Assembly (NCBI GenBank): GCA_023515795.1
Contig: JALGPX010000050.1
Coordinates: forward strand, 1-64,000
Length of the DNA stretch: 64,000 nucleotides
Direction of reading: 5' to 3'
DNA from: Amoeboaphelidium occidentale
Lineage: Eukaryota
The notes below the pieces were generated by a model. It was not told where the DNA came from. It worked only from the letters and a program-made list of their open reading frames with translations, and ran no database searches. A program made the position numbers and the translations under genes. The stretch's first letter is position 1. Each line of letters begins with the position of its first letter. Positions 5,680-63,007 of this stretch are shown here, one piece after another.

Positions 5680-5788
5680 GCTGAAGTTTTCGAAAAAGGA
5701 AAAATAGCAAGAGAATCTTCACGTGTTTCGCAACGTTCCTATGACGATCAAAAAGCTTAAACCCTTTTTAGAAAAATACTGCTCTATT

Positions 5789-7755: not shown

Positions 7756-10700
7756 TTATTGAGTTGGCATTAATTTGATCATCTTGCATAGAATAGCGGA
7801 CCATGAGAATAGATCACCAGCTTTCATTACTGCTCCGAGGTCGCTTTCAGGTAATTGACCTCTGATTGCTAAAAATTGTTCTGGAGCAATGAATGAAATA
7901 CTGCTGTTGTCCGGTCTGTAAATAGGGAATGCTTTTCTTGCAATTTCCTCAACGTCAGCTTTAATAGCACCACCGAATCCAGCTACAACTGCATAGAATG
8001 CACCAGATGCATCGCGATTGATGTAAACATTGCGAGGCTTAATATACCTGTGAGCATACCCACGGCCATGCAATGATTCTAATGCGCGAGCCATTCCCAA
8101 AACTAGGTTCAAAATTGTTGGAACAGTGAAAGGGATGTTCTTTGCCATGAAAACTTGTTCCAGTGTTCCAGGATGATTCTGGAAGATGATGGCAACAGGT
8201 TCCAAGCAGTAACCAAGTAACTTAAACGTTAGTCTGAATGTATTAATGACTTACCTGAGAGATGTTCTTGTGTTCATTGAATTTCCATAATAGTCCAACC
8301 TCTTGCCAGAACATTGTTTCAAATCCAGGGTTCATGCTGTAAGTATTTTCTCCATAAACTTTGACGACAACTTTGTCTCCCTTTGATCTTAAACCGTCTT
8401 TCAAGGCGACAGCAAGGTGTAGCATGTTACCGTTCTGGCTGCCAAGTTGTTGTTGCATATCAAAGTCGCTTCTTCTTACTTCCAAATAATCCGGAAGATC
8501 AGGGCGATTGATCTGTTCCTCAGCTTCTTGTTGAACTTCTTCACGTTGAACAACTTTTGGCTTTTCAGCTTCAGGTCTAGGAACCAACATTGCAGGATTC
8601 TCAATAACATTTGCTGGAATTTGACTTGTGACTGGTACTACTGCTGGACGCGGATAATCAATAGCAGGTTCGTTGCGAGGAGCTGAAGGCGTTGGTGCTG
8701 GAGCAGCTCCATATTCATCATGCGCAGCTTGAGTTACAGGAACCTTATTTGGTTGTGGCATTTGCTGTTGAGGCCTTGGCTGTTGTGGTTGCTGCGGTTG
8801 TTGCTGATAGTCTCCATTTGCAGTATAGTTTTGTCTAGCCATTGGCTGCTTTGACATTGCAGTAGCAGAATTGGCACCTGCTGTGTGATAAGCATCGCTA
8901 AGACTTCTTGGTGCACCAGTAGCNNNNNNNNNNNNNNNNNNNNTATAGTTTTGTCTAGCCATTGGTTGCTTTGACATTGCAGTAGCAGAATTGGCACCTG
9001 CTGTGTGATAAGCATCGCTAAGACTTCTTGGTGCACCAGTAGCACGAGTTGTGCTTGTGTGATATGCTTCTGAAAGACTTCTTGGACCAGCATTTCCGTC
9101 GTAAGGAGCATCTGGTGCGTAGTAAGATGCGCCTTGACTTTGAGCTTGTTGAGCCATCATGAATTGCCTCTTCTGCATTCTGGCTTGTTCACCAGATCGT
9201 CTTAACACAAATAGGAAGGTCCCAACTACAGCTAAACACAAAACTACAACTATTGCAATAATCGCGAATAATGGAATTCCAGCCTCTGGAGCTTCTTGTT
9301 GAAATCTGTTAAAATTCCTGCTTCTTGATAAAAACTCTTCGATGGTTGAAGCCATGCCTTCAGTTGTGCTTCTTGTAGTTGATAAAGAAACAGTGCTTGG
9401 ATTTCCAGTATCCGAAATAGTAGTAGTTACAATTGGCGGATCGCCGTTATCCTTGAATGACCAGATTTCATTTGAAACACCAGCTCCAAATTTTCCTCCT
9501 CCGAAAACCCATGCTGTTTTCAGAGACTGATCAAAATAAACTGTTACTTGCCAAATAGCACCTGGATAATTGGTGGGATCTTCAATACCCTGTTCATTAT
9601 AGTTGGCTCCGATCAATGGTTCTTTTGGACCACCTATCCATGTCCAAATGTTTGACTCAATAGAATATCTCCATAAGTCTGACATTGGTTCTGAATAGAA
9701 AAGTTCACCACTCTCATCAGTGTAAATCCTTGTTCCAGCAAATAGATACAATTTTTGAGTTTCGAAATCAATCCACATTGAAGCACCTGTTCTCGAACGA
9801 GGGTTATTGTTTGGAGAGGCAACATACTTTTCACCAAACGAACCGAAACTTTCAGACAAGAACTCTCCATTATGGAAAACCCATTCATTAGTAGCAACAT
9901 CATAGTGCCATAGATCATTCAGGTTTCCATAATCTGCCTGAGAGAAGCCTAAACCACCAAATATGTAGAACTTGCTGTTGACATCATCGTAATACTGAGC
10001 TGCAATGCTTCTAGCACCAGGAACATTTGTTGAAGCACTTACAAGAGGCGTTCCATAAACACCATTACGGTTTGGCTCATTAGGACCGTGCATCCAAACC
10101 CAATTATTACTTGTGATGTTATACTTCCACATATCGCTGAATCTGTCACCGTACGGCTGACTGAAAATCGCATCACTCATGGAAGCCCCGCCAAATACGA
10201 AGAATGAATCTGTGGTTGAGTCAAAAAAGTAATTATGGCCAAGTCTTGCAATAGGATTGTTTGATGGAGATTCAACTCCTCGAACACCATAAGACCCAGC
10301 AGCAACTTCTGGTCCGCCTTTCACATATTCAAAGTCTCCTTGGAATAAATCGAACTTAAAGAGCGAGTTTGTTACAGATAAGTCTGGAAAACTTCCTCCA
10401 AACACGTAAATCTGATTGTCTGTACAGAACCCTCCTGGTAACATTCTTCCACCCCAAGTAGCATCAAAGGATGAGTTGATATAAACAGGAAACGCTGATG
10501 AGCTCAGACCAGATCCTGCCTCCCATGTGTACATCTTATTTATGAAACTATAACTCCAAAGGTTGTCCGTGCGAATTCTGCCGTTCCAGCCAAAACCAAA
10601 GAACAACTTATCATCCATTCTGCATGTGAAGTATCCTCTCATTGCAGGTGGAGTGTTCGAAGGGTTTGATACACCCTTTCCTGCAGAAAATCCATTATCA

Positions 10701-10881
10701 CCATTCTCAAATGAACCTCCTATGGATGTTAGAATCTGATCATCAAACAATAGTGTTGTGTGCATGGGCTAGTGACAATGAACACCACCCCACGCATTCA
10801 ATAATTACCTATCCATACCCATCCTGCTAATGCTGGAGATGCTAGAAGTAGAGTTGATAAGACAAGCAGAGAGTGCCTCAT
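7756..10881 (-). CDS. Kelch-repeat ectodomain, single-pass receptor pseudokinase (3 exons)
   Basis: Signal-peptide exon MRHSLLVLSTLLLASPALAGWVWIG (10809-10881), introns 10720-10808 and 8221-8254. Kelch repeats (FGG...NDLW.Y), TM helix, Q/P-rich linker, then a kinase-like domain with HRYIKPRN and AGFG. Confidence 0.85.
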
Positions 10882-24651: not shown

Positions 24652-24882
24652 TCACCACTAATCAAAGTGGCGCTGGTGTGGTTTTGAGGCGGACTTGAGT
24701 CGTGAAAAAGACGCAATTGATGTTTGATCTCGGTACTAGTCGAGATAACTTTAGAAGGGTGGATATTTTGAGGAAATATAACTGTGTACTTTCTAATGAT
24801 CACATGTACACACGCCGGGATGTTGATTAAGGGGCTAGACTTCAGATTGAGCTAGTGATTCTTGACAATTTTTCCTCTTGAG

Positions 24883-26022: not shown

Positions 26023-26055
26023 ATTGCCACCACGTGATTAAACGTTTTTTCTATA

Positions 26056-42860: not shown

Positions 42861-43316
42861 CCAGATCCCCATATCAAATAAAAAGCATCACTGATCAAAT
42901 GGAGACATCTCCATCAAGAATTTAATGTCCAGCTAAGAAGTAAATGAATGGTATGATCATGATGAATTTTGAGATCAAAGCGGTTTGTATTGTGTTATAC
43001 CTGTTAGAAACATTAAACTAAATCAATAATACCAAGCAATGTTTTAAATCATGTCCTTTAATTAAACTTGAATATCTTTTCTTGTGATCTAAAGATGTCT
43101 GGGACAGGGCTCGTTAATCTTGTCGTCATGGAAAATTTTTATGCTCAACTTAGTTTCAAGGATGATCTCCATAAAGGCAATGTTGCTTTACTTTGTGGTT
43201 TCTTGCATACCACTTNNNNNNNNNNNNNNNNNNNNNTTGTGATCTAAAGATGTCTGGGACAGGGCTCGTTAATCTTGTCGTCATGGAAAATTTGTATGCT
43301 CAACTTAGTTTCAAGG

Positions 43317-46300
43317 ATGATCTCCATAAAGGCAATGTTGCTTTACTTTGTGGTTTCTTGCATACCACTTCTTGTCAGTTTACTTGAACATGAAAAGAGC
43401 TTCTTGATACAAGATGATGTAACAAATGGAATATCTATTGCTTTGTTCAAAGATTCGGTGCTGATAACATCTTCGAGCGATCTGGTCCAGAAAGACATTG
43501 AAACCGGTGCTATACAAAGAACGTTAAGAGCTCACACCAATGCGATCTATACTTTGACTGTTGTTGAAGATTCTCAATTGATCACTGCAGGATGGGATGA
43601 TATGATCGTGGTTTGGGATTTGGATTCAGGTGCGGTGCTACGAAGGATAAGACTTGGCTCCACAGAAACTTTCATCAAGAGCATTTCTTATGAAAATGGT
43701 CAGATATATGCTGGGGGAGCTGACCAATTTGTGAGGCGTATCAATTTGGTTTCTGGTATGGTAGTAAAATCGTGGTTTTATGAATGGTTTATCAGCTCTG
43801 TGGTGGTCAAAGATGGTTTCCTCTATGTTGGGATCCAAAGAGAAGTATCTCAAATTGAGAAAATCAGTGTCTCTACATCCGATGTAGTTTTGAGATTCGA
43901 GGGGCACACCACAGGTGTTTATTCTCTATATTATTATGAGAACTTGCTCTTCTCTGGTCCTGATAAAGATAGAATAATCGCATGGAACCCAGAAACAGGG
44001 AGTATTGTTCAAACTTTTTCTGGGCCCGCAGAAAGAATACTAGCTTTGGTGGTCCACGAAAAGGTTCTATACTCGGCCGGAGTCGATAACATTATCAAAT
44101 GGAATATTGATGATGGTCAATTGATCAAAATATTTCCAGCTCTTCATACAGATGTCATTAGAAGTCTGGGCTATAAAAACGGGACTTTGTTTTCTGGGTC
44201 AGATGATAACCTAGTGATAATGTGGAATGCGACAGACGCAACATCTATTTTCACATATGAGGGAAGAAAAAAGATCCTTTATGCCGCGGTTCTTTGGAAA
44301 TCTTTTCTAATAAGTGGCGGAGAAGATGGGATAATCAGATCTTGGGATGTTACTGTTAATAGTCTTGATCCATTGTTATCGGTGAATGAGCATTTCAGAG
44401 CTATTAATTGCATGGTCTTGTCGGGAGATTCACTCTTCTCGGGCGGATTTGATGCAACTATTAGACATTGGAATCTCACTAAGTTTACTTTTTTAAACGT
44501 TCTGAACGGTAAGTTGCTAGAATTGGTATTTTACTGTAGGTCACACGAGAAAAATTCTTGCATTAATAGCGGACTCTACATACTTGTATTCTGGGGGCGA
44601 TGATTTACGTATTAAACGATGGGAAGTGTCTACTGGTGTCGTTATTGCAGAGTTTATTGAGCACACTGACAAGATCTCTTCATTGCAGCTAAGCGATACT
44701 ATTTTGTTTTCGGCTTCGTATGATCCATCGATCAAGTTTTGGAATTTAGAAACAAGGGACAGCATCCGTACACTCAACTGTAAGATAATTCGTTGAAGCT
44801 AATTTCTTTTAGTTCCTAATGATGTTTTTGCTCTTCATCTTGCTGGAGAAACTTTGTTCAGTGGGTCGATGCTAGGAGTACACGCGTTTTCAACGATCAC
44901 CGGATTGACTCTTACCTTCCAATTAGGTGATTGTTATTGATGCAGTCTTATTTTTTTGTAGAAAACATCGGCTGCATANNNNNNNNNNNNNNNNNAAACT
45001 TTGTTCAGTGGGTCGATGCTAGGAGTACACGCGTTTTCAACGATAACCGGATTGACTCTTACCTTCCAATTAGGTGATTGTTATTGATGCAGTCTTATTT
45101 TTTTGTAGAAAACATCGGCTGCATATCAATTGCATCGTGGGATAATGGTGTAATAACTGGTCATCAAGACAGTTTGGTCAGAGCGCGAGATTTCAATTCT
45201 CTTGCTATTGTTGGCATATTCCAAGGTCACCAGGATTCAGTCAGATCTCTTACTTTCGATAGTACAGGGACACTTTATACTTCAAGTAGTGATGGCTCTG
45301 TAAAAAGGTGGAATATGGCTTCGAGGAAGGTTGCATTTTCCTTTGAGAACAGAAATAGTTCAGTCACAGTACTAACTGCAAGCGGAAATTATTTATATAT
45401 TGGTGTAAAAAGCGGAGTTGTCAATCGCTTTGACATCAGGAATGCAATTCTGGATCGCTCTTCTTCTTCACACAGTGGTTTTATTACTTCTTTCGTCCAT
45501 GTTAATGGCAGCCTTTATTCAGCAGGAAACGATGGAACTATTGTAAAATTGCCATCAAACCGAAAAGAAGAGCCTGTTGTAATTTTCTCCTCTTCACCTT
45601 TCCCTATTCGAAGTTTGACTTATTCCAAAGTCGAATTCGCTTTCATTCAAGGAGAAAATCAGATTTCATTCCTACCCTTTAATAGCGATGCAGACGTCTC
45701 GAGAACGATCATATCACCAACCCCAATTCTTTGTATAGCTGCTTACCAGTCTTTTGTGATATCTGGATCTAAATCTGGAATCATTTTTGTTTGGAATATG
45801 GATAAGCTCAAACTGGAATACGAGCTGAGAGGCCACACATCTCAGGTCAATATGGTTCTTATTGATCAGAGCTCCCTGTATTCTGCGTCGGATGATAAGA
45901 CAATTATTATTTGGTCTTTAGAGGAAAGATCAATCGTGAGAACATTGCAGCGATTATCCGCTAGCGCATTAGGTCATCTTGGCCCTGTCAATGCGATTTC
46001 TGTTTGCAACGGCTTACTATTCTCTGTTGGTTCAGATGTGGCTACTAGACGATGGAACATCCAGACGGGGAGACACGAAGGTGTGTATTTTGGCTTCTCA
46101 AAACCTGTTACTACTGTAATTTGCCACAACAGAACGGTAATTGCTGGTAGTGAAGATTTTTCCGTTTTGCTTTACAAACCAAATATTCCCGAGGAGAAAA
46201 TTCTTTCCACGTCCATAAAGACTCAGTGGCCAACTACAAATCGTGCAAGGAATACAAGAGTTGTGCGAAAAGCACAGACAATCACATCTGAAGCTTTATC

Positions 46301-47177
46301 TTCTTTAGTACCGATCTTTGGAGCGGCTGCAGGAGTTGTTGCTTTGCTTCTAATTGTCGTTGTGGTTTACTTGTTTGTTAAGGCAAAGTCTAAACAGTCC
46401 GCTTCTCCTAGAGATAGATCTACAGAAAACGAAGCGAATGAAACAACTACGGATCTCCAAACCGTTATCAACTCCGTTATGGGCATATCCCGCCATGCTG
46501 AGTATCTTTTACCCGTTAGTATAATCGCAAGAGTCAAGAAGCTTACAGCTGGTGGTGGCGGCGAAGTTTTTATTGCGAAAGTGATGGACCCTGTTTTATC
46601 AAAGAAATACGGAGACACTGTTATTCAGAAAGTAGTTTTCGTGAACCAAAAGTCCACGGAAGAGTCATTCTTTCAAGAGGTCGGTATAATGATTATGCTT
46701 TCATCATTTCCACACTTTTGTGAAATAATTGGATATACCGATAAACCTTTGTCGATGATACTTAAGTACTACCCTGATGGATCATTGACAGAGTGGTTGC
46801 AGAATAATTTTTACGGCGAAAAGATTGTGGTCAAATGCACGAAGGAGATTTCCAAAGCATTAAGTGTAATGCACTCTCATTACTTAGCGCATTGTGATAT
46901 TAAGACTCAGAATGTGTTGGTTAGAGTCGATAATGGTATTCCGTCCTGTTATCTAACTGATTTCGGCATTACTCAAGTGTTATCTGATAAAATTTTGGCA
47001 TCTGCAATGTTCCAAGTTGTTAACTTAAGGGGTCTATCTATACCATATGCTTCACCAGAGGCATTCATCAACTTTAGATCAAAAAATTACGCAAATATCA
47101 ACTTCAAGAAGTATGATATCTATTCCCTTGGTATGATTCTTTATGAAGTCATGGCCAAACGCATACCATGGAAGTGA
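43317..47177 (+). CDS. WD40-ectodomain receptor-like kinase 1 (4 exons)
   Basis: Signal peptide, GH...WD repeats, TM at about 46308-46380, kinase GGGGEV/VIQK/HCDIKTQN/DFG/YASPE. Introns 44509-44539, 44780-44812 and 44927-44961 (the last duplicated across the gap). Confidence 0.9.
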
Positions 47178-47261
47178 TTTTATAATAAATGCTATCTTGA
47201 GGAAATTCTCACACGTTGGTACCAGCTTTCAAGGGCAAACCGTTTGTCTCGTTGATCCAAC

Positions 47262-50200
47262 ATGAAACAACAACTTTTAGCGCTGGTTTTGCTTCTTACG
47301 TCAACACTTACTTTGATCTTAAGCTTGGAACATGAGAAAAGTTTCTTGCTTAAAGATGGTTCGACTTCTGTGTACTCCGTTGCTCTGTATCGAAACTCTT
47401 TGCTCCACACTTCAACTAGTGATATTGTCCAAAAGGATGTCGACACAGGGGCTTTTCAAAGAACATTCAGAGCCCACAAGGGTCGAGTTATGGATTTAAT
47501 TGTTACGAATAGTTCAACGATGTTCAGCGCTGGTATTGATGATACGATCGTAATGTGGGACTTGGAGACAGGTGCCATCATCAAGAGATTCCGCTTAGGA
47601 GCTTCAGGTACTTTGGTCCAAAGCATATCTTTGCAAGGTGATCACATATTTGCTGGCGGAATAGACTTCAAGTTCAGACAAGTGAATGTCATAACAGGAA
47701 TAGTTATGAGAACATTCGGTTAGTTTTTATGTCGTTTGCCCTTATACTTAAAGATGTTCGTAGCCGCATTGAAAAGGTTGTAGCAGACGGAGACTTTCTT
47801 TACATTGGAAAATCAGGAATTCCTCCCTTGGCTAAAGTGTCCATTCTGAATGGAAGGAATCAGTTGATATTCGACGAACATTCAGATGGAGTTTTTGATA
47901 TAAGGCTGTATAATGGTATGCTGTTTTCTGCATCTGATGATGCGTTTATCGTTTGCTGGAATGTTCTCAACGCTGCTATTATTGCAACGTATGTTGGGCA
48001 CACCGATGGTGTACGTGTGATAACAATTTGGAATGATGTGCTCTACTCTTCGTCTAAAGATCATACAATCATCAAGTGGGACATCTCTAGTACGGAGATC
48101 CTAAAGATATCTCCATATTTCACTTCATCTGGAGCACGCAGCTTCGCATTCAGCGATTCTTATTTAATCTCCGGAGGCACAGATGGAATTCTTCTTAAAT
48201 GGGATTTCAATCTCGGGTCACCTCTATTTTCATATTCCGGCTCTGACAAACGTTTAAGAAACGTTGTTTCGTGGAAGAATTATGTTATCAGTGGCGGCTT
48301 CACAAACGAAATCAAACAGTGGGACACATCACAAAATAGTCCAGATCCTTTTTTCATTTATGCTGGTAACGAAGAATCTGTAAATTGCCTCTACATTTTC
48401 GAGGATGCTCTTTTCTCAGGAGGGCTTGACACTTTAGTTTTATTGTGGAACTTGACGAGTATGATTAAGTCTGGTGTGCTTCGTGGTAAAATTCGAGTCT
48501 ATTCGCTTATTTTTGAAAGGACATACAGAAGGTGTTTTAGCTATCGTGGCTGACCAAAATTTTCTTCACTCAGTCGGAGATAATCGAAACATCAAACAGT
48601 GGATTTGGAAAACAGGAACCTTCAACGGCGAGCTACTCACTGGCACAGACTCAATTCAATACTTGCAGCTGAGCAATGAAGGCCTATTTTCTGGATCCGA
48701 ACAGTATGTGCTGTACAAATGGGATGTAACATCCAAAACTGGAATTCAAGTATTTGTTTGTAAGTATTTGCTCATATTCTAACTTTAGCTTTAAACCAAA
48801 TTTTCACCATCCGCATTTTCGAAAAATACATACTGATAGGATCGTTTGGTCTTGCTAAAATTTCTATTGAGAACGGAGAATCGATTGCAAGTCAAACAGG
48901 CAAGTTTTGTTCTATCTTTCTTATATTTAGAAAGCGTTATATGTTTGAGTTTAGTATCAAGCTATACTAGAATATTTTCTGGACATGATGACGGTCTGAT
49001 AAGAGGAAGGGATGTGCTTTCCTTGGGTGTTTTGGAGACATACCAGGGTCATGTTGATGCTGTTTTTTCATTGTCTATTGATGAGGCAGGCGCCTTGTAT
49101 TCTGCCAGCTTGGATGGATCGGTCAGGCGTTGGAGTTACATGACACGAAGAACAGCTTTCTCATTTGAAGATAGAAGTGGTTCGGTATCTTCTCTTACTG
49201 TCCTTGAAAATCATCTTTTTATTGGCACAAGGAGCGGGAGTTTAAACACTTTTGATTTGAGTGACACAACAATACAAGGATCCATGAAAATGCACAACGC
49301 CGCAGTCACTTCTTTGATTACAGATGATAGTAGAGTGTTTACATCTGGTCTGGATGGTGTGATTTTTAGTATGAGACAGGGCTTCAATGAAAACGCTAGC
49401 ATTATTCTGAACTACTCCCCTCTGTCTCTGAAAGGCCTCTTTAACCTCAAGAATGTTTTGTTTTTTATAAGTGACGATACAGAGATTTATTCTATTGGCA
49501 CCAACAGCTCAAATCCTGCGACCAAACGTGTAACATCAGGAATTCCTTTGAACTGTCTCTCTGGGTACAACGGCTTGATATTGGGTGGCTCAAAATCGGG
49601 CAGCATCTTTGCTTGGAGCTTGGATACTGCCGTACTAACATACGAACTGAGGGGTCACTCTTCTCAGGTGAATTCACTTGGAGTTTCAGGTGATTTATTG
49701 GTCTCTGCATCAGATGACCAAAGCATCATTATTTGGTCTTTAGTTGATATGGCTTCGGTAAATGTACTAAAAAGAGTATCCAGCGATTCTCTAGGTCACA
49801 TTGGTCCTGTAAATTCTATTTCATTGTGCAACGGTTATGTTTTCTCGGGAGGGAGTGATGCAACGACCAGGAGATGGAACATTCTTAGTGGCAAGCACGA
49901 AGATGTTTACTTTGGCGCCTCAAAATCGACAACGACTGTTTTATGTCACAATGAAACAGTATATACTGGTGGAGAAGATTCTGCAGTATTAATGTTCAGG
50001 CCAGTCTTTTCTAAAGAAAGTAATTATAAGTCGACTGGTACTTCAAGTCGAGATAGAAGGCTTGTTCAAACCAGATTAAGGCAAAGAATCTCATTTTCCG
50101 GAATGATAGATCTCCAAACTATCATCCCAATGATCGTTGGTTTTGCCATACTAGCAATGGTTATTTTAGGATGCACTATCTATATATTTCGTTACAGAAA

Positions 50201-50999
50201 TTCAAAAGCCAGACGAGATATCTCTCCAGGGCAAAAAACTTCATCCGAGGAAACAAGCCAGGCTGTTACTGACTTGCAAACAGTTGTAAACTCGGTCATT
50301 GGCATTTCAAAACATGCAGCATTTCTTGTAGAAAAGTGGGCAATTGCAAGAGATAAGAAAATTGCGGCCGGTGGTGGAGGGGAGTTGTATCTTGCAAAAA
50401 TCATGGATCCTGCGCTAAAAAGAAAGGCCAGAGAAGAAACTGTAATACAAAAAGTTGTGTTTTTGAAAAACAAGATTAACGAAGAGGCATTCTTCCAAGA
50501 AGTTGGGATCATGATTATGCTTTCTTCATTCCCGTGCTTTTGCAGCATAATAGCTTATACGGAAGATCCATTTTCAATGATTTTAAAATACTACCCCGAA
50601 GGAGCATTGCATGAATGGTTGAGATCCAACAAGTATAGCAAAAAAGTTGCTGTTGCAATTTTGTCAGATACTGCTTCTGCTCTGAAAATCATGCATTCAT
50701 ACTACTTGGCACATTGTGATCTAAAATCCAAGAATATCTTGGTTGAGTTAGTTAACGGACAACCGTCGTTTAGATTGACAGACTTTGGTATCACCCAAAT
50801 TCTATCTGAAAAGGTTATGGACTCGAGATCATTCAAAATAATCAATCTAAGAGGCTTGTCTGTGGACTACGCATCACCCGAAGCGTTTAGAAATTTCAGA
50901 ACCTCAAAGTATGTTCGTGTTGATTTCAAAATGTATGATATTTACTCCTACGGCTGTTTAGTGAAAGAAGTTCTAACAAAAACATCTCCGTGGGGCTAA
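47262..50999 (+). CDS. WD40-ectodomain receptor-like kinase 2 (5 exons)
   Basis: Same architecture. Introns 47719-47753, 48486-48519, 48760-48788 and 48900-48930 (GC-AG). HCDLKSKN and DFG. Confidence 0.9.
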
Positions 51000-51113
51000 A
51001 GACTATTCATGTTGTGAACAATAAACTTTAGTTGAGTTGAGAATCTGTTCGAACTCTCGCAAACATGTCGCAGAGTCTTTCCAGACGCTTTTTCGTTTCA
51101 CCTTCAAGTCACA

Positions 51114-54100
51114 ATGAAAAACAACAGAGCTTTTTTGGCTATTATCTTAACAGTCATTTTGACCCTATCTAAAGCAATTGTGCAAGAGAAGAGCTTCATC
51201 CTGAAGAATACCACACCAAGCGTCTTTTGCATAGCTTTGTACCAAAACTCCTTGCTACTGACCTCGTTCTATGATATTGTACAGAAGGACATTGAAACTG
51301 GTAAAACACAAAGGACCTTAAGGGGACATGAGAACATTATCTTTTCGTTTGTGGTGACTTCAGATTCCAAGTTGATCAGCTCAGCCATTGATGATTCTGT
51401 TGTTCTTTGGGACTTGCTCACAGGCTCAGTGTTGCAACGGATCAAGTTACAACAGAAGCAAACGATTATTTCAACCATCTCAGTTCAAGATGATCAAGTT
51501 TTTACAGGTGGTTTTGATAGCCTGGTAAGGCAGATCGATTTAACGGAAGGCAGAGTAGTTAAAACGTTTGGTACATTATCCATTATCATTAGCTGACTTT
51601 TCTAGCTTTCGGTGACATAATTACAAGCATCGTGGTCAAGGGGGACTTTATTTACGTTGCTACAGCGCAGCAAGGCAACTCAATACAAAAACGGCGCATT
51701 TCCACATCTGAAACTTCTCTTTTCTTCACTGGACACACAGATACCGTTAGTTGCCTGGTCTTACGAGAAGAAACGTTATTTTCCGGCTCAAATGATAAGA
51801 CTATAATCTTTTGGAATGTCGTCAACGGCCAGAGCATAAGGATTCTGGTTGGTCACGCTGGCAGCGTAACAGCATTGACTATCTTAGGCAAGGATTTGTA
51901 CTCTGGGTCGAATGATGGTATGGTCATCAAATGGGATATTGCAAGCGGCGATAAGTTGATCGATTTTCCGAGGCGCCACACGAACGTGGTTAAAAGTCTT
52001 GCATGTAACCAGAATAGTCTTTTCTCTGGATCGGACGATAAATCGGTAATACGATGGAACAAGTTAAATGGTTCTCCTGAATACTTTTACTTAAGTCAAG
52101 AAATTAGAATAAGGAGCATGTTTTTGTGGAAAAATTTCATAATTGGTGGAAGAGACGATTCTGATATTCAACTTGTTGATGCTTCTATTCTCAAGTTGGA
52201 ACCAATAGCATTGATGAAAGGCCATATTTCTAGCGTACTGAGTCTTGTCCCGTATGAGAATGAACTCTTCTCTGGAAGCTTGGATACTACAATCAAACTA
52301 TGGAGCTTGACGACTTTGACAGTTCAGACTGAATTAAGAGGCAATCTTTCGTTTTCGGCTCATAATTTTAGGACACACTGGTGCTGTAAGAACACTTTCG
52401 GTTGATAATTTGTACTTATTCTCCGGCGGGGACGATCTTATTGTCAGACAATGGACAAAATCCACATGGTTCATTACGGAGTTCATAGGGCATGTCGGTC
52501 AGGTTAACAATTTACAACTTGAAAATATCAATCTTTTCTCTGGATCTCAAGATAAAGATGTAAGAGTATGGGATACAAGATCAGGATTTAATTTCCAAAC
52601 AGTTACTGGTAAATAATTTTCTTAGAAAGACTTACTTCAAGCAACAAATATTGTCAATGTCATACACTTACTTCAGAATTCGTTCATTGTAGGAACCAAC
52701 ATTGGGCTGCAATCATTTTCCAAGACAAATGGCGAGAGCTTAATTGTCTACGCTGGTAAATCCCTCTTTTTTTAACGCTGACCTTTAGAATTGACTTCCT
52801 GTACCTCATTGGCTGCAACAGACCTGGTCCTTTTTAGTGGTCATGATAATAATTTGATCTACACCAGAGAATTCAATCTGCTGTTTGCTTTGACGACGTA
52901 CTTGAGCCATAATGATGTGATCACATCTCTCCACATGGATTCTACAGGAGTGCTATATTCTGCAAGTCTAGACGGGCAGATCCTCAAATGGGATACCAAA
53001 TTAAGAAAAGTAGCTTTTTCATTTGAAGACAGAAGTAGGGCTGTTACTTCCTTGGCTGCAGTCCAAAATTACCTTGTAGTCGGTCTTCAGAGTGGATATA
53101 TCAACATTTTTAACATCGAAGACACTATCCTTATCGATACTGTTTGGCTTCACAACAAATCAGTTGACTCTCTTGCAGCAGTTGGCGATCAAGTGTTTTC
53201 GTGCAGTTCGGATGGAAATTTGAAGTCTTTCAATCCTTTTGAGAGGTTTAACCAAGAAGTTGTTTCTGATCATGGAAAAATCCCCATTCGAGGACTAATA
53301 CAGCATGATAATAACTTGCTTTACATCAAAGGAGACTATGATATTATTATATCCTCCTCAAATGCTTCCTCTCATGTTCTTAGAACCATAAGTTCTTCTT
53401 ACCCTGTTTTTTGCATCACTTCAACGACGGACAAGCTTTTTGCAGCATCTCTCTCGGGAGAAATATTCGCTTGGGATCTCAAATCTGGACGCTTTGAATT
53501 CAGCTTAGTCGGCCATCTTGCAGTAGTAAACTCCTTGCTGGTGGCGGATGGATCGTTGTTTTCAGCATCGGACGATAAGTCAATAATTCAATGGTCGCTG
53601 GAGAGACGCGATATTGTGAGAACATACAAAAGGTATTCGGCCGCTGCACTGGGTCATACTGGCCCTGTTAATGCGATTACTTTTTGCTCTGGACTTTTAC
53701 TATCTGTCGGAAAAGATGACACGCTTAGAGTTTGGAACATTGACACTGGAAACCAAGTGGATCAATTTCGATACTTTAAGTCTGCTACAGCTGTTATTTG
53801 TCATAACAATATTTCATACGCAGGTAGTGAGGATTTCTCCGTATTAATGTTTGATTTGGAGAAAATCAATGTGCAAAGTGGACCAGAAACGTCCAGAATT
53901 AAAACAATAAGTACCAAAAAGAGGAAACGGTCCAAAAATGTTCGAGCAACCAGGGAAAGCGAAGACTTATCTCAACGCTGGATCGTTCTGATTATTGCTA
54001 GCTCGTCAGTATTAGTAATACTCATTACTGGTTTTGTTTTCTACGTATGGAGGTCCAAAATAGCATCCAAGTCCGCCTCGCCTACTGTTAGCAGTACAGC

Positions 54101-54848
54101 AGATTCAACTTTTACAGAAATGGATCTTCAAACTGTCGTTAATTCTGTAATGGGTATTTCAAAACACGCGGAGTATATTATTGACAATTCAGTGGTTGCA
54201 AAAGTAAAGAAGATTGCAACTGGCGGAGGCGGAGATCTTTTTCTGTGCAAAGTTATGGATCCGCGTCTTGTTAAGACAACTGGTGACTTTGTGGTTCAAA
54301 AGTTGGTGTTTGTTAACAACAAGTTAAAGGAAGAGGCTTTTTATCAGGAGGTTGGAATTATGGTTATGCTTTCGTCATTCCCACACTTTTGCAAAATTCT
54401 TGGCTACACTGAGAAACCGTTATCGATTATTATGCGCTATTACTTAGAAGGATCTCTATTCGATTGGATCAGAAACAGAAGCCTTAGCAGGTCAATCGCA
54501 ATTCAAATTCTACTGGAAGTGTCTAGAGCATTGAAAGTAATGCATTCTAATTATCTGGCTCATTGTGATTTAAAGTCCCAAAATATTCTTGTTGAGATCG
54601 TGAATGGCATTCCAGCTTTCCGTTTGACGGATTTCGGCATCACAGAAATCCTTTCGGATAGAATAATCGCATCGAAGGCTTTTCGTGTTGTCAATTTGCG
54701 TGGTCTATCAATTCTATATTCTTCACCAGAAGCCTTCGTTTGTTACAAAACGAAACATTACGTAGGTGTTGATTTTAAGAAGTTTGATGTCTACTCTCTT
54801 GCATGCCTGTCGTATGAGGTTCTGACACAAAAATCGCCATGGAACTGA
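51114..54848 (+). CDS. WD40-ectodomain receptor-like kinase 3 (5 exons)
   Basis: Same architecture. Introns 51571-51605, 52341-52371 (GC-AG), 52609-52641 and 52756-52788. HCDLKSQN and DFG. Confidence 0.9.
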
Positions 54849-54894
54849 ATTAATAAAACACTACTAAAACGCATTGTCAATGCCTTCAATTAAT

Positions 54895-57639
54895 CTATTT
54901 GAATTTTGACCACGGTGTTCGTCTGGAAATCATCTCGTAAAGTAAGGATGCCCAAGAGTAAACATCTCCCGCTTTGAAGGTATCCGCACTATCGCTAAAA
55001 ACAGTTTTAGCTCTTTGTCTTTTAAATGTCTCAGGTGAAGCATAGGCAAACGATAATCCTCTAATGTTTGAAACATTGAAACCGTTAACCACCAAACTCA
55101 TAGAAAGAACTTGAGTGATACCGAAATCAGTCAGAACACAAAATGCAAAACCATCCTTATCAGTATCAATTAAAACATTAGCACTCTTGATGTCTGAATG
55201 CGACAAATCGTGCTGATGAAGAGCACTTATTCCAGAAGCAATATCGGAGATGAAATGCAGCATGATTCTTTTTGTGATTCTTTTCTCGTTCTTTATGAAT
55301 TTATCCAATGGTCCAAGGCGATAATGCTTCATAAGGATACTCAGAGGCTCTGATCTACAATAACCAATTATCTTTGCAATGTTTTTATGGTTCTTCAGCA
55401 TTGCCATAATGCTCAACTCTTGTTCAAACAGTTTAGCTTGTCTAGCGTTCAAGTTCTGGTTACTTGAATTGGAAATCAATCGCTTTACAACTATGACATT
55501 TCCAAAAATACTGGTCTTTTCATCCAAAGCATCGGCCAGGTACACCTCACCTCCCCCTCCTTGTGAAAGTTTTGACGTTACTCGAAAGCTTGTATCTGGT
55601 ACTTCCATGTAAGCTGGGACCGAAAGCACTTCCTGGCTAAAGGAAACAAGAGTGGCTGTCTCTGTTGAATACGAATCAGGTCTAGCAGGAGTTACCTTAT
55701 AGACCGGCGGAACAGATGGGAGGTAGATTGCTGACTTGAATTGAGCGTAATCACGTCTTTGCCAATATCTTTTATAAAAGAAATAGGCTGCCAATAATAT
55801 TAAAAGTAGTGCGAAACCAGCGCCACCAATTATTATATAGATTAAAGTAGACAAATCTAGGAGATTTTCTAATGTCACTGAATTGTCCGGACTAACGCTA
55901 GGATTAACCGATCGAGAAATCAATGCTCTTCTTGAGGATCTGTTGTCGTCAACATCACTAACAGAAGTTTTGTTAGAGTAAGTAGAACTCGGATGAAAAG
56001 TTGTTAATGCTGATGCAACAGAAGAAGTTATTTGACTCTCATCCCTTATTGCTGAAGTTTGGTATTCCCCAATCCTTGTTTCCGCTGCTGTTGTTAATAT
56101 TTCTGTTGATATTGCTTTCTCTGAAGCAGTTGTCGTGGAAGTTTCTTCTAATTTCGTAGTTGGTGTAGAAACAGGCGGTACCTCTGAGGCAGTTGAAGTA
56201 GAAGAAAATTCAGACGTAATTTCGGTTGTGCTCGTAGTTTGTGATGTTGTGGTTGTGCTACTTGTAGATCCCACGACTAGTTCTGGTGCAGCAAATTGAA
56301 GTTTCCAAAGATCGCCATTATCTTGCCCGCCGAAAATGTATGACGCGTTCATGCTACTAAAAAATGCAGAACCACCTCTCCATCCTGGTCGATTTTGACT
56401 GCTTTGTACACGATAGGTCCCGTATTTTGGTGCAATCTTGGAGCAAGTATCATTAATGACAAGGTCCCATGTAAAGGTTTGAACATCAAACAGCCACTCG
56501 TCTGAACATTCATAGAAATCAATATTGGCATCCGTATAATCACCTCCTTGAAGCAAAATCTGATTCCTTCCCGCATCGTACAACCAATTTGGAGATATCT
56601 TTGCTGCTGGATAAGCATAGCGAGAGTCAACCGTATAATTCCCAGGATCGTATGCATATGGTGACCCTCCAACAAATGCCCACATACCAGCTGTGATATT
56701 GTACATCCAAGTCTCTGATGTGCAAGCCCAGGTAGTATCCATAGATCCTCTAATTGGGAGAGGTCCACAACCTCCTGTAACAAAAAGGAGGTTGTCATGT
56801 GTTACAATCATGGATGCTGTTCTTCGTAAACCTGGCTTATTTCCACTACTCAATGCACCATAAGACTCGATTATTGAGAACTCATTGGTGCTTGAGCTCC
56901 ACAGGGCAGTAAATCGGTTGTTCGACACGCGATACCTCCAAAGAGTATTGGAAGTATATCCAGAGCCGTCGCCACCAAATATGTAAAGAAGTTTATCATT
57001 ATGGCTGTATGCAAATGCAGCGACTTGAAGACCGCCGATATTTGTAGTGTCAGACTCTTCCATGGGAACAAATACAGGCATCTCATCAAGCTCTGTTGTT
57101 CCCCCTATCCACGTAAACATGTTTGTATCAACATCATAAGACCAAAGGTCATTCAAATAACCAAAGTAGGGGTAAATTGTTTTTCCTATGCCTCCAATTA
57201 TGAAGAACTTTCTCAAATCAGAATCATAGAAGTATATAAACTCCCCACGAGAACCCGGATAAATACTACTGTTTGTATCTCCAATAGAAGTATAAACTCC
57301 AACTGCTTCTACCTGATTGCTTCCGTGAATCCATGTCCAAGCAGAGGAAGCATCTCTTGAGAAATCGCATTTCCACAAATCATTAGTTCTATCATACCCC
57401 AATTCATAGTCTGAGTATGTATAACCCCCAAATACATATGCAGCGTTTTTTAGATCATCAACGAACATGCCTGAGTAATGCCGTGACCCGACTTTATTTG
57501 ATGCTAGATAGACACCTCTCGATGGCGGATACACTGCGCCTGTTCTATAAGTTTCACCTCCCCACCAGGTCCAATTGTACGGGATAGACTGTGTAAAGAC
57601 TGAGGATGCTAATAGTGGCGCCAACAGTTGAATGATCAT
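54895..57639 (-). CDS. Kelch-ectodomain receptor-like kinase (intronless)
   Basis: Signal peptide, Kelch repeats (FGG...NDLW), S/T-rich stalk, TM helix and kinase QGGGGEV/VVK/HSDIKSAN/DFG/YASPE. Confidence 0.9.
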   Translation of the reverse strand: MIIQLLAPLLASSVFTQSIPYNWTWWGGETYRTGAVYPPSRGVYLASNKVGSRHYSGMFVDDLKNAAYVFGGYTYSDYELGYDRTNDLWKCDFSRDASSAWTWIHGSNQVEAVGVYTSIGDTNSSIYPGSRGEFIYFYDSDLRKFFIIGGIGKTIYPYFGYLNDLWSYDVDTNMFTWIGGTTELDEMPVFVPMEESDTTNIGGLQVAAFAYSHNDKLLYIFGGDGSGYTSNTLWRYRVSNNRFTALWSSSTNEFSIIESYGALSSGNKPGLRRTASMIVTHDNLLFVTGGCGPLPIRGSMDTTWACTSETWMYNITAGMWAFVGGSPYAYDPGNYTVDSRYAYPAAKISPNWLYDAGRNQILLQGGDYTDANIDFYECSDEWLFDVQTFTWDLVINDTCSKIAPKYGTYRVQSSQNRPGWRGGSAFFSSMNASYIFGGQDNGDLWKLQFAAPELVVGSTSSTTTTSQTTSTTEITSEFSSTSTASEVPPVSTPTTKLEETSTTTASEKAISTEILTTAAETRIGEYQTSAIRDESQITSSVASALTTFHPSSTYSNKTSVSDVDDNRSSRRALISRSVNPSVSPDNSVTLENLLDLSTLIYIIIGGAGFALLLILLAAYFFYKRYWQRRDYAQFKSAIYLPSVPPVYKVTPARPDSYSTETATLVSFSQEVLSVPAYMEVPDTSFRVTSKLSQGGGGEVYLADALDEKTSIFGNVIVVKRLISNSSNQNLNARQAKLFEQELSIMAMLKNHKNIAKIIGYCRSEPLSILMKHYRLGPLDKFIKNEKRITKRIMLHFISDIASGISALHQHDLSHSDIKSANVLIDTDKDGFAFCVLTDFGITQVLSMSLVVNGFNVSNIRGLSFAYASPETFKRQRAKTVFSDSADTFKAGDVYSWASLLYEMISRRTPWSKFK

Positions 57640-57840
57640 TTGTTGAAAGTACCATTCGAAGCGCTAATCAGTAAGCTTGCAAATCATGACACCAGCGGAT
57701 TGGTTGAAATGTAAACTGAGCATAACTAAAACTTTGCTTGTTTAGCATGTTCAGGATGCATTATGAAAATATGGTTACAATTGAGTGTTCAAGGACTGTG
57801 CTATAATATATCGGAAAAGATAAATTGCTAATGTTTATTC

Positions 57841-58323
57841 TCATGATCCACGACCGCCTCCATTGCCATATCCACGACGAGGTTGCGGCGGTGGTGGAGG
57901 TGGGCGACGTGGTGAAGGTGGACGAGGAGGTGGTGGAGGAGGCATGCGCGGTGGAGGTGGGGGTACATGTGGTGGCGAAGTTGTCATTGGTGGTGGCGGA
58001 GGCACAACAGTAGAAGTTTCAGGCCGTGACAGGGTGCTGCTCGTTGGTTGAGGAGGTGGAGTACTGCTTGTTTGAGTTGGTGGAACTGGTGGAACCAAAG
58101 TTGTTTCTTGTGCTGGATATGATATAGATACAGTTGTTGTCGGACCTACTGGTGGAAGAGGCGTCATGTACGTGACAGCTGGTGGAGATGGAATATGTGT
58201 CGACAGATCAGGAAGAGCAGACGTTTTTCGTGCTGAACCAGAACAAGGCGCAGCTCCATTCGCGTCGGGAGCAGCAAATGTTGTCAGTGAAAGCAAAGTT
58301 GAAACAATCAGGATGATCTTCAT
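57841..58323 (-). CDS. Small secreted Pro/Thr-rich (extensin-like) protein
   Basis: Signal peptide MKIILIVSTLLSLTTFA, poly-Pro runs and an R/G-rich tail. Upstream TATA-like CATAAAAAG and downstream AATAAA. Confidence 0.7.
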   Translation of the reverse strand: MKIILIVSTLLSLTTFAAPDANGAAPCSGSARKTSALPDLSTHIPSPPAVTYMTPLPPVGPTTTVSISYPAQETTLVPPVPPTQTSSTPPPQPTSSTLSRPETSTVVPPPPPMTTSPPHVPPPPPRMPPPPPPRPPSPRRPPPPPPQPRRGYGNGGGRGS

Positions 58324-59263
58324 AATACAATGTCGATTGCCAAAACAATAGATTTAGAAATGACATTGACAGTTACGGCCGCTTTTTATGCGATGCTTGT
58401 GTTAGTCGCACATCTTTTTATTGGCTAGGGAGTTACACAATTTAGATCTCATGTCGCACAATTACATGAATCCACGTTACACAGGTTTGACAGGTGATTT
58501 AGAAGAAAACCTGTACGATTTTCCTTAAAATAATCACCGTTTATGAAAACAAAATTAAGCTCTTCTTTTTGCTCATTATAGCGGCAAAATTCTATCACCT
58601 CTTGAACATAACGTTGAAACAAAGGGTTCAAAATGCAGATGATAGAGGTGTGCTCATTAATGGACCATTCAAGATACACTTCATTAAGGTGAAATTGGAA
58701 CGACCACGTTTGAAGGCACTAGAGTAATGCTAAATAAAGTGATTATCATTGTTTTCAGAGTGATTATATCTCGGTTTAAAACGTCGCAATATTCCTTATT
58801 GGCAACGGCTCGCACTTTCATGCTAAGAGATAATTGAGTTAGTCAAAGCCCTATCATTCTTTTTTTGTAGAAAATGTTTCATAGCAATGTATGCGCGTTA
58901 TTATGACAAATAGTTATTTCAAGCTTTATCCCGTTGCTGCCGACAAGACTCACGAAAAGAAATTTGATTATAACTTTTCATCACATTCCATCTGGGCTAG
59001 GGCCCCGATGTGTAGCAGATTCTCTTGATGATGTCTTTGTATAGTGTAAGTCAATGCCTGAATGAGCGGTCTTCGCCATGAGCCCAGCAAGGAAATTTGC
59101 GTACCTATCAACAATGATATTGCTGTATTTCAAGGTATATTGATTTTTATCAACGGAGCTATGTTTCATGAAAAGAGCTGTCAGACAAGCCGATGTTTGA
59201 AATTCTTTGAGAGTACATTCTAGTTGTTTCCCTGCGATATCCGTTTGAAAAACAGCCTTTTTT

Positions 59264-62200
59264 ATGATGATCATCCGAATGTTCATATCTTTACTGTCAT
59301 TACTAAGCTTAGTCTCTTTGGTTTCAACGCTGCAGCATGAGAAGAGCTTTGTTTTTGATAGTTCTGCCTCTAATGTTGTAGACATAGCGCTGTACAATCG
59401 GTCATTGCTCATAACAGCTTCAAATGCAGTAGTCCAGAAGGATATTGAAACAGGCATTTTTCTTAGAAAATTTTCTGCGCATTCAGGCAAAATTCGTAGT
59501 TTTTTGGTTGTCAATGGCTCTATAATGATAACCTCAGCTTGGGACGATATGATCATCGTTTGGGACTTGGCTACTGGCTCAATTCTGAGGAGAATATGGC
59601 TGGAAGCCTTAAATACATATCCTTCGAGCATAAAGTTAGAGAGCAATAGTTTGTTTGTATGTGGACTTGATGGTAGGGTAAGGATTGTGAATATGATGTC
59701 TGGTAGAGTTGTTCAAACAACCTGTAATTTCTTTCTTGATTTCTTATGATTTCTTTAGCCCTGAACGAAGAAGTAAATGTAATTGCTGTTAAAGATGATA
59801 ATTTTTATGTCGGAAAACGAGGAATATCATCTCAGTTGGAAAAATATTCTACAACTTCCAGATCTTTACAACTGATGTATGTGGGCCATAAAGATTCTGT
59901 CTTCAGTTTGTCTCTGCAAGAGGGGTTGCTTTTTTCTGGCTCATATGATACCAACATTGTCTGTTGGGATGAAATGAATGGACAAATAATCCGTATATAT
60001 GAAGGCCATCCGGCACCAATTCAGGTTATTTCTATTTTTGAAAATTATTTGTATTCCAGTGGTGAACAAGGTATTATATTGAAATGGAATATTGATTCCG
60101 GAATCATTGAAACAAGCTTTCCGGCTCTTCATGGAAGCACCATTTGGTGTTTGGCGTTTGAGAGCGGAAGTTTGTTCTCAGGGTCTATTGATACAACTGT
60201 TGTCCGGTGGGATGTAAACTCTTCATCCGCACTTTTTTCATATGAGGGTCGCATAATCAAGCTTGGCTGTCTTGTTTTGTGGAAAAATGCCGTTATAGCT
60301 GGAGGTAATAATCCACTATTGTCGATTCAGGACAAGTCGCAAGATTCTGTTTCACCAGTCGAAATTACGTCTGGGCATTTCGGTGATGTTATCTGTATGA
60401 TATTACTCGATGACACTCTTTTTTCAGGAAGTACCGATACGACCATTCGCCGCCGAAGTTTGATCGACTACGCTGATTTGAAAATTTATTACGGTAAGAA
60501 TTTGCCCATCAGGATTTAAATTTTATAGGCCATTCCAATATTGTTAGTTCGTTGGCTTTAGACGAAAATTACATGTATTCTGGTTCTTATGATTCTGTGA
60601 TTAAACGTTGGAATATATCAACCGGATCTGTGGATAAAGAGTATATTGGTCATACAGATTTAGTCTGCGGTATTCAAGTGAAAAGAGAGTTTCTTTATTC
60701 TGCTTCTTTTAATAATGATTTGAGAGTTTGGGATAAAGAATTGGAGATCACGATCAATGCTTTTCAGTGTAAGTTTGTACCGCGAATTAACAGTTTAGAT
60801 TTCAAAGAAGTGTTCTGCATCTTCGTTTATGATGATTTTCTTATTGTGGGAACATTTGGTATCGACATTATTTCGACCTCCACTGGTGTACTGTTGGCTG
60901 GACAAAAAGGTTTAACACGGAAGTCTTCACCACTAATTTTATAGAAAATACTATTTGCTTTACAATTATAGCTACAAAGTTGCTTGTTTATTCAGGGCAC
61001 GGCGATGGTGTGATAAGAGGAAGAGATCTGATGACTTTAAATGTTTTGCAATCGTTTCAGGGCCACAAAGATAATGTGATGTCACTTTGTTTGGATGAGG
61101 CTGGTATCTTATTTTCGACGGGGTTTGATGGCTCTATTAAGAAATGGAACATGGCTTCCAGAAGAGTTTCTTTTTCATATGAAAATCGAAATGGTTCTGT
61201 AACAGCATTGGTTGCAACGAGTGGACTCTTGGTGGTCGGAACAAGGCAAGGATTAATCAACTCGTTTGACATACGAACTGCGTACATAATCAAGTCCACA
61301 GCTCACCATCAAAGTTCTGTGACATCCTTGACTATATATGATGGGATGATCTACTCAACTGGGAGGGACGGGATTGTTCTTGCATTTCGTCCGGCTGATA
61401 CCTCGATCTCGGATGTTTTGTACGATACAGAGACTCTCCCTATCGCAAGCGCGACTCTCAACATGTTAAATTTGATAATAGTCAGAGGTGAGAACGAGGT
61501 TATTTTTTTACCCAGGACGAACTCAAGTAGTTCAGTGAGAAGTCTTAATTATGCTTTGCCAATTGTGAGTATCGCAGCCAATGATGATATGATATTTGCT
61601 GGCACAAAGGCTGGGTCGATTGTCGTTTGGAGCGCCACATCTTTGCAGACTTTGTTTTATATGGAAGAACACACTTCTCAAGTCAATTATCTTTTGCTGA
61701 CAGATTCTTCGCTCTATTCCGCATCAAATGACAAAACCGTCATCAAATGGTCTGTAGAGCAAAGACGAAAGATGATTGTGTTTAAAAGATTTTCTTCGAC
61801 GGCACTTGGACACTTGGGCCCCGTGAATTCTTTATCTTTGTCCGGCGATACTTTGTTTTCTGCTGGTTCAGATTTATCAACTCGGCGATGGAATGCACAA
61901 ACAGGCCGCCATGAAGATGTGTACTTTGGAGCCACAAAGTCTGTAATGTCTGTTTTTTGCTTCAACGGATCTGTTTTTGCTGGTAGTGAAGATTTCTCGG
62001 TGCTGATGTATTCACGTAACCTTCCGTTGAATGCCGCAACTCGAAATGCGATTAGCCTTTCAACAAAAACTAAGCGAGGGGTCAGAAGAAAGATTGTTTC
62101 GAGAACTAATTACTCTGGCTCTGAAAATTCACAAACTGTATTTTTAGTTGGTGGAATCGTTGCCTTATTGATAATTGCCGTTACCGCTATTTGGGCATTA

Positions 62201-63007
62201 TTCTATTGTTCATCGAAACCAAGTATTAAGCAGATTGAGAAACATGGGTTGTTTATACAGGAATTATCAGAAATTACTACTGATTTGGAAACGGTTGTTA
62301 ACACCGTTGTCGGCTTATCGAAACATGCTGCTTACATGGTGGCGAACTCAAACGTTGCAACTATTAAGAAGCTTGCATCTGGTGGTGGAGGAGAGATATT
62401 TTTGGCTCGAGTTATGAACGCCTTTTTAACAGAAAAGACCGGAAATCTGGTGATACAGAAGATAGTTTTCATCAAGAACTCCAAATCAGAGGAAGCTTTC
62501 TACCAAGAAGTCGGGATAATGATCATGTTATCTCCGTTTCCGAACTTCTGTCGTATAATCGGACTAACAGAAAAACCTGCGTCGATGATCTTGCAGTATT
62601 ATCCTGACGGTTCATTGCAAAGCTGGATTCAAGGAAACAGGTATGACCGAGGTGCTATCGCAAAAATTTCAAAAGAAATTTCTTCTGCTTTGAAAATTAT
62701 GCATTCGCATTACTTGGCTCACTGTGATATTAAACCTCAGAATGTTCTGATTGAAATTGTGGAGGGAATTCCCACATGTTTTGTAACCGATTTCGGTATT
62801 ACTCAAGTACTATCTGATAAGATCCTGGCATCTCGTGATTTTCAAGTGACTAATCTTAGGGGATTATCAGTACCTTATGCTGCCCCAGAAGCATTTTCCT
62901 GTTTCATAAAAAGAGAGTTTTTTGGAGTTGACTTGAAGAAATTTGATATTTACTCGTTCGCTTGTGTAGTACTAGAACTTCTAACTAGAAAGATTCCGTG
63001 GTGCTGA
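59264..63007 (+). CDS. WD40-ectodomain receptor-like kinase 4 (5 exons)
   Basis: Same architecture. Introns 59724-59758, 60494-60528, 60769-60798 and 60910-60944. HCDIKPQN, DFG and YAAPE. Confidence 0.9.

Follow-up and report, generated by a model that had tools for sequence, protein, structure and literature searches.

Aphelid receptor kinases that end after helix alphaF: inherited loss of a docking subdomain in a family that probably remains catalytic

Can a protein kinase domain naturally end right after helix alphaF, and what could such a kinase still do? This question is raised by a 64,000-nucleotide stretch of Amoeboaphelidium occidentale DNA (assembly GCA_023515795.1, contig JALGPX010000050.1, positions 1 to 64,000 of the forward strand; hereafter the window), which encodes an array of five receptor kinases (K1 to K5) and a related pseudokinase (K0). 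A sequence-only reading of the window had proposed that all of these domains lack subdomains X-XI and that they represent a conserved, family-wide minimal kinase, whose C-lobe has to be completed by a partner or dimer or which signals allosterically. The missing part comprises helices alphaG, alphaH and alphaI – the GHI subdomain, which is described as serving substrate docking (PMC3415842).

Pfam searches recovered a single-pass receptor layout, with a WD40 or Kelch ectodomain and a kinase domain. K1 (43317..47177, plus strand; start approximate) consists of a signal peptide, a WD40 beta-propeller ectodomain, a transmembrane segment and a GHI-less kinase (about 46536-47174). The same WD40, transmembrane and GHI-less kinase parts make up K2 (47262..50999, plus), K3 (51114..54848, plus; a 1170-residue model, P0057) and K5 (59264..63007, plus; start approximate), and all four genes contain short introns. 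Kelch ectodomains are found on K4 and K0. K4 (54895..57639, minus; a single exon, 914 residues) has a signal peptide, Kelch propeller, Ser/Thr-rich stalk, transmembrane segment and GHI-less kinase; K0 (7756..10881, minus; start approximate; a 34-nt intron at 8254-8221) has a Kelch ectodomain, a transmembrane segment and a pseudokinase that ends after alphaF. The hydrophobic N-terminus and single transmembrane stretch of the array kinases were judged by eye, as were the predicted signal peptides.

Consistent with an early end, coverage of the Pkinase hidden Markov model (263 positions) stopped at position 198 in K1, K3, K4 and K5, at 197 in K2 and at 190 in K0. About 65 positions – alphaG, alphaH and alphaI, subdomains X-XI – are missing from K1-K5, and no complete C-lobe was found. 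The chains terminate with EVMAKRIPWK in K1 (stop at 47177), EVLTKTSPWG in K2 (50999), EVLTQKSPWN in K3 (54848), EMISRRTPWSKFK in K4 (54895, minus), ELLTRKIPWC in K5 (63007) and KMIKLMPTQ in K0 (7756), just as the sequence-only reading had them, including the similar end that it described for the pseudokinase. The tight neighbours and AATAAA motifs that it placed behind the stops were also recovered. The next ATG lies 84 bp from the stop of K1 (K2), 114 bp from that of K2 (K3) and 68 bp from that of K0 (the neighbouring gene), and the convergent stops of K3 and K4 are separated by 46 bp (54849..54894, with AATAAA at 54852-54857). AATAAA occurs within 50 nt past the stop in four of the five array genes (K4 excepted), compared with 2.3% of 53-nt windows. 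Reading TAA and TAG as Gln was tried and rejected: a TGA would stop K2 and K4 after a few added residues.

The same endpoint recurs throughout the family. From protein searches and a cluster look-up we collected 90 distinct proteins scoring at least 130 bits on a family profile, three of them the window's own genes and many of them close paralogues or strain copies. Eighty-four finish 0-17 residues past a Pro-Trp (PW) motif, 83 within 8 residues and 54 at exactly +1. Because so many family members share it, the endpoint is not a matter of chance. Among the remaining six, one stops at the Pro, three are shorter models and two run into the WD40 region of the next gene; GHI is present in none. 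Kinases from outside the family that turned up among these hits continue for at least 55 residues beyond that point. The longest tail in the family, 17 residues past the Trp, belongs to P0089, which has an NHL and cysteine-rich (ephrin-receptor-like) ectodomain. The A. occidentale gene models P0057 (K3) and P0153 (K5; 100% identity over residues 447-1133) share the window's stops, as fits DNA of this aphelid or of a strain that cannot be told from it, and a transcriptome protein from Paraphelidium tribonemae (35% identity to K3) ends four residues past PW. If the latter came from a 3'-cut transcript, its endpoint would be a coincidence of position.

Errors are frequent in the public gene models of this family: P0020 and P0138 join a kinase end to the WD40 region of the following gene, and in P0153 5' exons from 58451-58724 replace the signal-peptide exon of K5.

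We consider it very improbable that subdomains X-XI are in fact provided by a missed exon, trans-splicing or read-through. A donor-like GTGATT does span the K1 stop, the closest full-length relative (the sister kinase at metagenome locus L007, described below) has an intron just past PW, and many homologues are metagenome gene calls, liable to stop at an intron. Against this, the residue following the terminal Trp is freely variable, K2-K5 have no such donor, the frames downstream of the kinase stops all close soon, and 1,349 donor-acceptor joins tried within 6 kb yielded no GHI-like product (best 2.8 bits). Contigs about 95% alike to the window skip the K3 introns (near 51571-51606 and 52755-52787) and come from runs of unrecorded kind in one study; we took them as spliced from the skipped introns. 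One such contig, from a related strain, covers 52788 to 54873 with no joint and ends there, 25 nt beyond the K3 stop. It counts against splicing past that stop, as evidence of colinearity: 40 of 234 variants were listed, with the strain's stop codon outside those listed. A second contig extends 42 nt beyond the K2 stop, and a DNA contig of an approximately 90%-alike strain covers the convergent K3 and K4 in identical layout. The Paraphelidium protein brings the same endpoint from a second genus. We found no GHI-coding piece in the window by profile in six frames or by tblastn (best E 0.32), a search of low sensitivity: the GHI profile detected the GHI of the kinase at metagenome locus L001 (E 2e-4) and missed that of L007, the nearest relative, hence little weight attaches to its lack of matches in the window and among these joins. 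In AlphaFold models of K3 and K4, which fold confidently as monomers (mean pLDDT, the predicted local distance difference test, 87 and 85), the last long helix is alphaF and the chains end after it. We are nearly certain that the early kinase end is real, family-wide and old.

To place this truncation, we built a quick, midpoint-rooted tree of 51 rows – 30 truncated kinases, picked from about 95 across all subgroups, and 21 full-length ones. The truncated kinases, among them K0 and the Paraphelidium protein, group in one clade (SH-aLRT, the Shimodaira-Hasegawa-like approximate likelihood ratio test, 95), and the L007 kinase is its sister (92). One truncated clade beside a GHI-bearing sister therefore points to a derived loss that most likely happened once and before the two aphelid genera diverged, after which the family expanded with WD40, Kelch and NHL/cysteine-rich ectodomains. 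The 'conserved, family-wide minimal kinase' of the sequence-only reading was thereby borne out, as one clade that extends to a second aphelid genus.

The L007 kinase is the closest full-length relative found, an EGF-transmembrane receptor kinase of an AT-rich protist. Its contig (26% GC, poly-A/T introns) carries two near-identical kinase copies at 1-2277 and 4530-5430, and the GHI exon is complete behind an intron (PK_Tyr_Ser-Thr positions 212-257, E 0.026). With the truncated family it shares a juxtamembrane Thr motif, the SIP cap, a G-x-S P+1 loop, a long alphaEF-alphaF loop and the PW motif; unlike the family, it has HRD, beta3 Ala, DFG-Leu and the full GHI exon. The position of its intron, directly past PW, suggests that truncation may have begun with loss of the last exon. 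The truncated family was absent from the seven metagenome loci (six with one plant-type kinase, of which L001 was examined, and L007). Word-based protein searches, of limited reach and with length windows, returned no A. protococcarum, Aphelidium or fungal protein, and the ESM Atlas returned generic kinase clusters only.

We then asked what catalytic equipment these kinases retain. The sequence-only reading had described the catalytic motifs as intact in the five array members, and we verified that the Lys, alphaC Glu, HxD, DFG and xPE are all present in K1-K5. In an alignment of 77 rows (the five window kinases and 72 proteins, with duplicates, partial or fused models and P0137 left out), the beta3 Lys, alphaC Glu, alphaE His, His-x-Asp-x-Lys-x-x-Asn, DFG, DFG+1 Ile and alphaF Asp are invariant, and the APE Glu (76), P+1 Ser (76), terminal Trp (75) and alphaF Glu (74) nearly so. 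The HRD Arg is replaced by Cys, Ser or Ala, giving a non-RD loop, and is absent in 29/29 truncated kinases. By what we take to be the PKA equivalence, the final residue of the peptide-binding platform directly precedes the end of the chain. Among four WD40 paralogues nonsynonymous divergence (dN) was 0.33-0.36 and synonymous divergence (dS) 2.1 or saturated, and 8 of the 11 strain differences listed in the K2 kinase are silent; dozens of GHI-less paralogues are under purifying selection. On this sequence evidence, the kinases are probably catalytically active in some form.

Two other classifications were rejected. Tyrosine kinases carry Ala/Arg in place of the catalytic-loop Lys typical of Ser/Thr kinases, whereas in the family that Lys is present in 77/77 and the P+1 Thr position holds Ser in 76/77. 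Nor do K1-K5 qualify as pseudokinases, given that the beta3 Lys, catalytic Asp and DFG Asp are kept in 77/77. Only K0 qualifies: its catalytic Asp is Tyr, its DFG Asp is Gly and its glycine loop is degenerate. The juxtamembrane region of K0 is also long and rich in Gln/Pro, with an acidic stretch at the site of the others' Thr motif; a role as co-receptor or decoy is possible.

A candidate substrate lies within the receptors themselves. In 91/94 rows a Thr stands 9-11 places before the N-lobe cap, with two mostly hydrophobic residues after it – at 46461-46463 (plus) in K1, 50280-50282 in K2, 54132-54134 in K3, 55651-55653 (minus) in K4 and 62291-62293 in K5. The residue is Thr in 74/77 rows, never Ser, and in 41/41 rows of a second alignment; the motif is present in 8/8 deep lineages compared with 3/257 background positions. 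It is absent in K0, which lost both catalytic aspartates (one case). The juxtamembrane segment is unplaced in the K3 and K4 models (pLDDT under 50), so the Thr could be free to serve as substrate, and the DFG+1 Ile in 77/77 predicts a preference for Thr.

Loss of GHI would also expose a face of alphaF. Comparing 29 truncated with 18 full-length kinases, a mixed set, we found a hydrophobic residue at alphaF D-4 in 28/29 versus 0/18 and a basic residue at D-3 in 24/29 versus 4/18. An alphaF Gly is relaxed (10/29 versus 17/18), an aliphatic residue at alphaF +6 is retained in 5/29 versus 17/18 and a hydrophobic one at alphaE 135 in 7/29 versus 12/18, while both alphaF catalytic-spine (C-spine) positions are unchanged. 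Several positions facing alphaH/alphaI, an assignment that we presume to carry over from PKA, are now polar or smaller and appear to fit adaptation to the absence of these helices. A homodimer prediction, run without an alignment, scored 0.02 and counts neither way.

We favour the following account. Ligand binding to the variable beta-propeller ectodomain would cluster the receptors, and each kinase would act in trans on the tethered Thr-hydrophobic-hydrophobic motif of a neighbour. With the substrate held by the membrane on clustered receptors, docking would be unnecessary and the GHI surface therefore dispensable, and the platform for the peptide, with its P+1 loop, alphaF Glu and terminal Trp, is retained. 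The D-4 hydrophobic and D-3 Lys/Arg residues may cover alphaF and replace the lost pairing of an Arg with the APE Glu. Judged from sequence, inherited GHI loss combined with an active tethered-Thr mechanism in aphelid single-pass receptor kinases has, as a whole, about an even chance of being right. We put forward more tentatively, as somewhat more doubtful than not, the sharper version: an expanded receptor family without GHI and without the Glu-Arg pair that kept its activation segment and became a self-sufficient 225-residue Thr kinase phosphorylating its own tethered site – two elements regarded as co-evolved would here have been uncoupled by nature, without prior description.

Several observations weigh against this account. 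PKA catalysis drops strongly when Glu208 or Arg280 is lost (PMC3415842), and the same X-XI truncation in Arabidopsis HT1 (ht1-5) is recessive and classed as loss of function (PMC4892718). The beta3 Ala is Ile, Val or Leu in 77/77, a bulky residue in the C-spine, and the glycine loop mostly has Ala or Thr in place of its first Gly; together these changes could narrow the ATP site. The 'compensating' residues descend from a single loss and are one event, which Fisher P values overstate. Most alphaF positions are still hydrophobic and therefore a cover may still be needed, and the Paraphelidium protein has neither the D-3 basic residue nor the alphaF Glu. The Thr motif was defined after the sequences were seen; it is also found in the GHI-bearing sister and is older than the loss, and therefore does not explain the loss by itself.

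Three other functional readings share much of this evidence. The sequence-only proposal that a partner or dimer completes the C-lobe, or that signalling is allosteric, is possible and not the best reading, given the kept catalytic and substrate residues and the confident monomer model. That a partner, be it K0, another receptor or a separate GHI-like protein, covers the exposed face of alphaF and that the complex alone is active seems unlikely, even though alphaF is largely hydrophobic, the APE Glu persists without its Arg, and a pseudokinase receptor of the same clade lies in the window. It has precedents in OspG, which is activated by E2-ubiquitin (PMC12756638), and in LegK4, where an alphaF/alphaG dimer interface stabilises the activation loop (PMC4588518). 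The changes at alphaE 135 and alphaF +6, however, fit an unburied surface, the monomer models are confident, and the window lacks a GHI-like piece, the last point being weak in view of the profile's miss on the closest relative. A conformational switch of RIO-like or pseudokinase-like kind, in which the domain binds or hydrolyses ATP and phosphorylates no protein, strikes us as quite unlikely. RIO kinases do without subdomains X and XI, both important to the binding of substrate (PMC2564912), loss of Arg280 damages PKA (PMC3415842), and the bulky beta3 residue, altered glycine loop and non-RD catalytic loop would suit such a switch. The residues that serve a peptide substrate are nevertheless kept (loop Lys 77/77, DFG+1 Ile 77, P+1 Ser 76, Trp 75, alphaF Glu 74), and K0 illustrates how a dead member of the clade looks, with K1-K5 unlike it at every one of these sites. 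We regard it as distinctly improbable that the kinase is active alone on a downstream protein, with the juxtamembrane Thr being structural or modified by another kinase. The catalytic evidence is the same as for action on the tethered Thr, and the Thr motif predates the loss, standing beside DFG-Leu in the sister kinase. Without GHI, however, little docking surface remains for a free substrate, the strict Thr agrees with the DFG+1 rule, and the motif was lost along with catalysis in K0 (one case).

Set against known kinases, the family keeps an unusual combination of parts. The K3 model superposes on TKL/TK kinases (BRAF, Csk, RIPK2, CTR1) from the N-lobe to the end of alphaF, with Z 22.6, root-mean-square deviation (rmsd) 2.1 and 201 aligned residues for BRAF (up to residue 657) and Z 21.8, rmsd 1.8 and 188 aligned for Csk. 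Both groups have the full DFG-to-xPE activation segment; the aphelid family differs in lacking alphaG-I and the subdomain XI Arg, in its Ser/Thr-type loop and in identity (at most 27%). The matches listed by the fold searches were canonical kinases, with OspG, NleH, RIO and Bud32 not among them. Cut-down C-lobes are known from the bacterial kinases OspG and NleH1/2, which lack the GHI helices, and from SteC, an active kinase whose C-lobe is small (PMC13395416). Subdomains VIII-XI are missing from OspG and NleH, of which OspG is active (PMC12756638, PMC4588518). These secreted effectors lack VIII-IX and the activation loop, whereas the aphelid kinases have VIII and IX, are membrane receptors and descend from a complete eukaryotic kinase; we accordingly rejected their assignment to the minimal-kinase class of subdomains I-VII only. 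RIO kinases lack VIII, X and XI and have alphaI (PMC2564912). The absence of X and XI is common to both, but RIO lacks the activation loop and has alphaI and the aphelid family is the reverse, so the RIO class was rejected as well. None of OspG, NleH, SteC and RIO pairs a full activation segment with an end at alphaF.

Among the features of eukaryotic protein kinases (ePKs), the family has the beta3 Lys/alphaC Glu, the catalytic loop, the DFG-to-APE activation segment and the alphaF Asp. It lacks the GHI subdomain and the buried pair of APE Glu and subdomain XI Arg, the chain stopping before the Arg. Two features that define ePKs are thus absent from a family that descends from an ePK and likely works like one. 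Receptor-like kinase sets have been noted to differ between aphelids and fungi (Mikhailov et al. 2022, Curr Biol, as cited in PMC10608142), and the aphelid receptor-like kinases of that work match ours in organism group and architecture. The GHI-less truncation is undescribed in the full-text literature searched, a scope outside which the aphelid genome paper itself (Mikhailov et al. 2022) falls; that paper may mention it.

Other features of the window were annotated alongside these genes. The N runs at 43216-43236 and 44979-44995 are scaffold-overlap artefacts, the second inside the K1 gene: the right flank duplicates the 134 and 130 bases, respectively, that precede the gap. A further run at 8924-8943, within the K0 gene, has an identical peptide on both flanks and is probably the same kind of artefact. 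A short open reading frame (ORF) between K4 and K5 (57841-58320, minus) has a hydrophobic N-terminus, a Thr/Pro-rich tail and no Pfam match, and a 243-codon ORF antisense to the first exon of K5 (58981-59712, minus; weak Pfam match, E 0.021) is likely a shadow frame. Class 3 lipases are encoded by three ORFs, at 4411-5718 (minus), 24859-26022 (plus) and 26038-27021 (plus), the last two in tandem; their N-termini are hydrophobic.

The activation segment and GHI, joined by Glu208-Arg280, are described as two co-evolved hallmarks of ePKs (PMC3415842). The aphelid family has kept one and lost the other, in dozens of paralogues and two genera. This makes testable whether GHI serves folding, catalysis or docking alone, and which residues can substitute for the Arg, with natural controls available in the GHI-bearing sister and the dead paralogue. 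If the kinases prove inactive, a family with every catalytic residue and yet no activity would still be unusual. The finding also bears on host sensing by aphelids, parasitoids of algae that stand at the root of fungi and have a large receptor repertoire.

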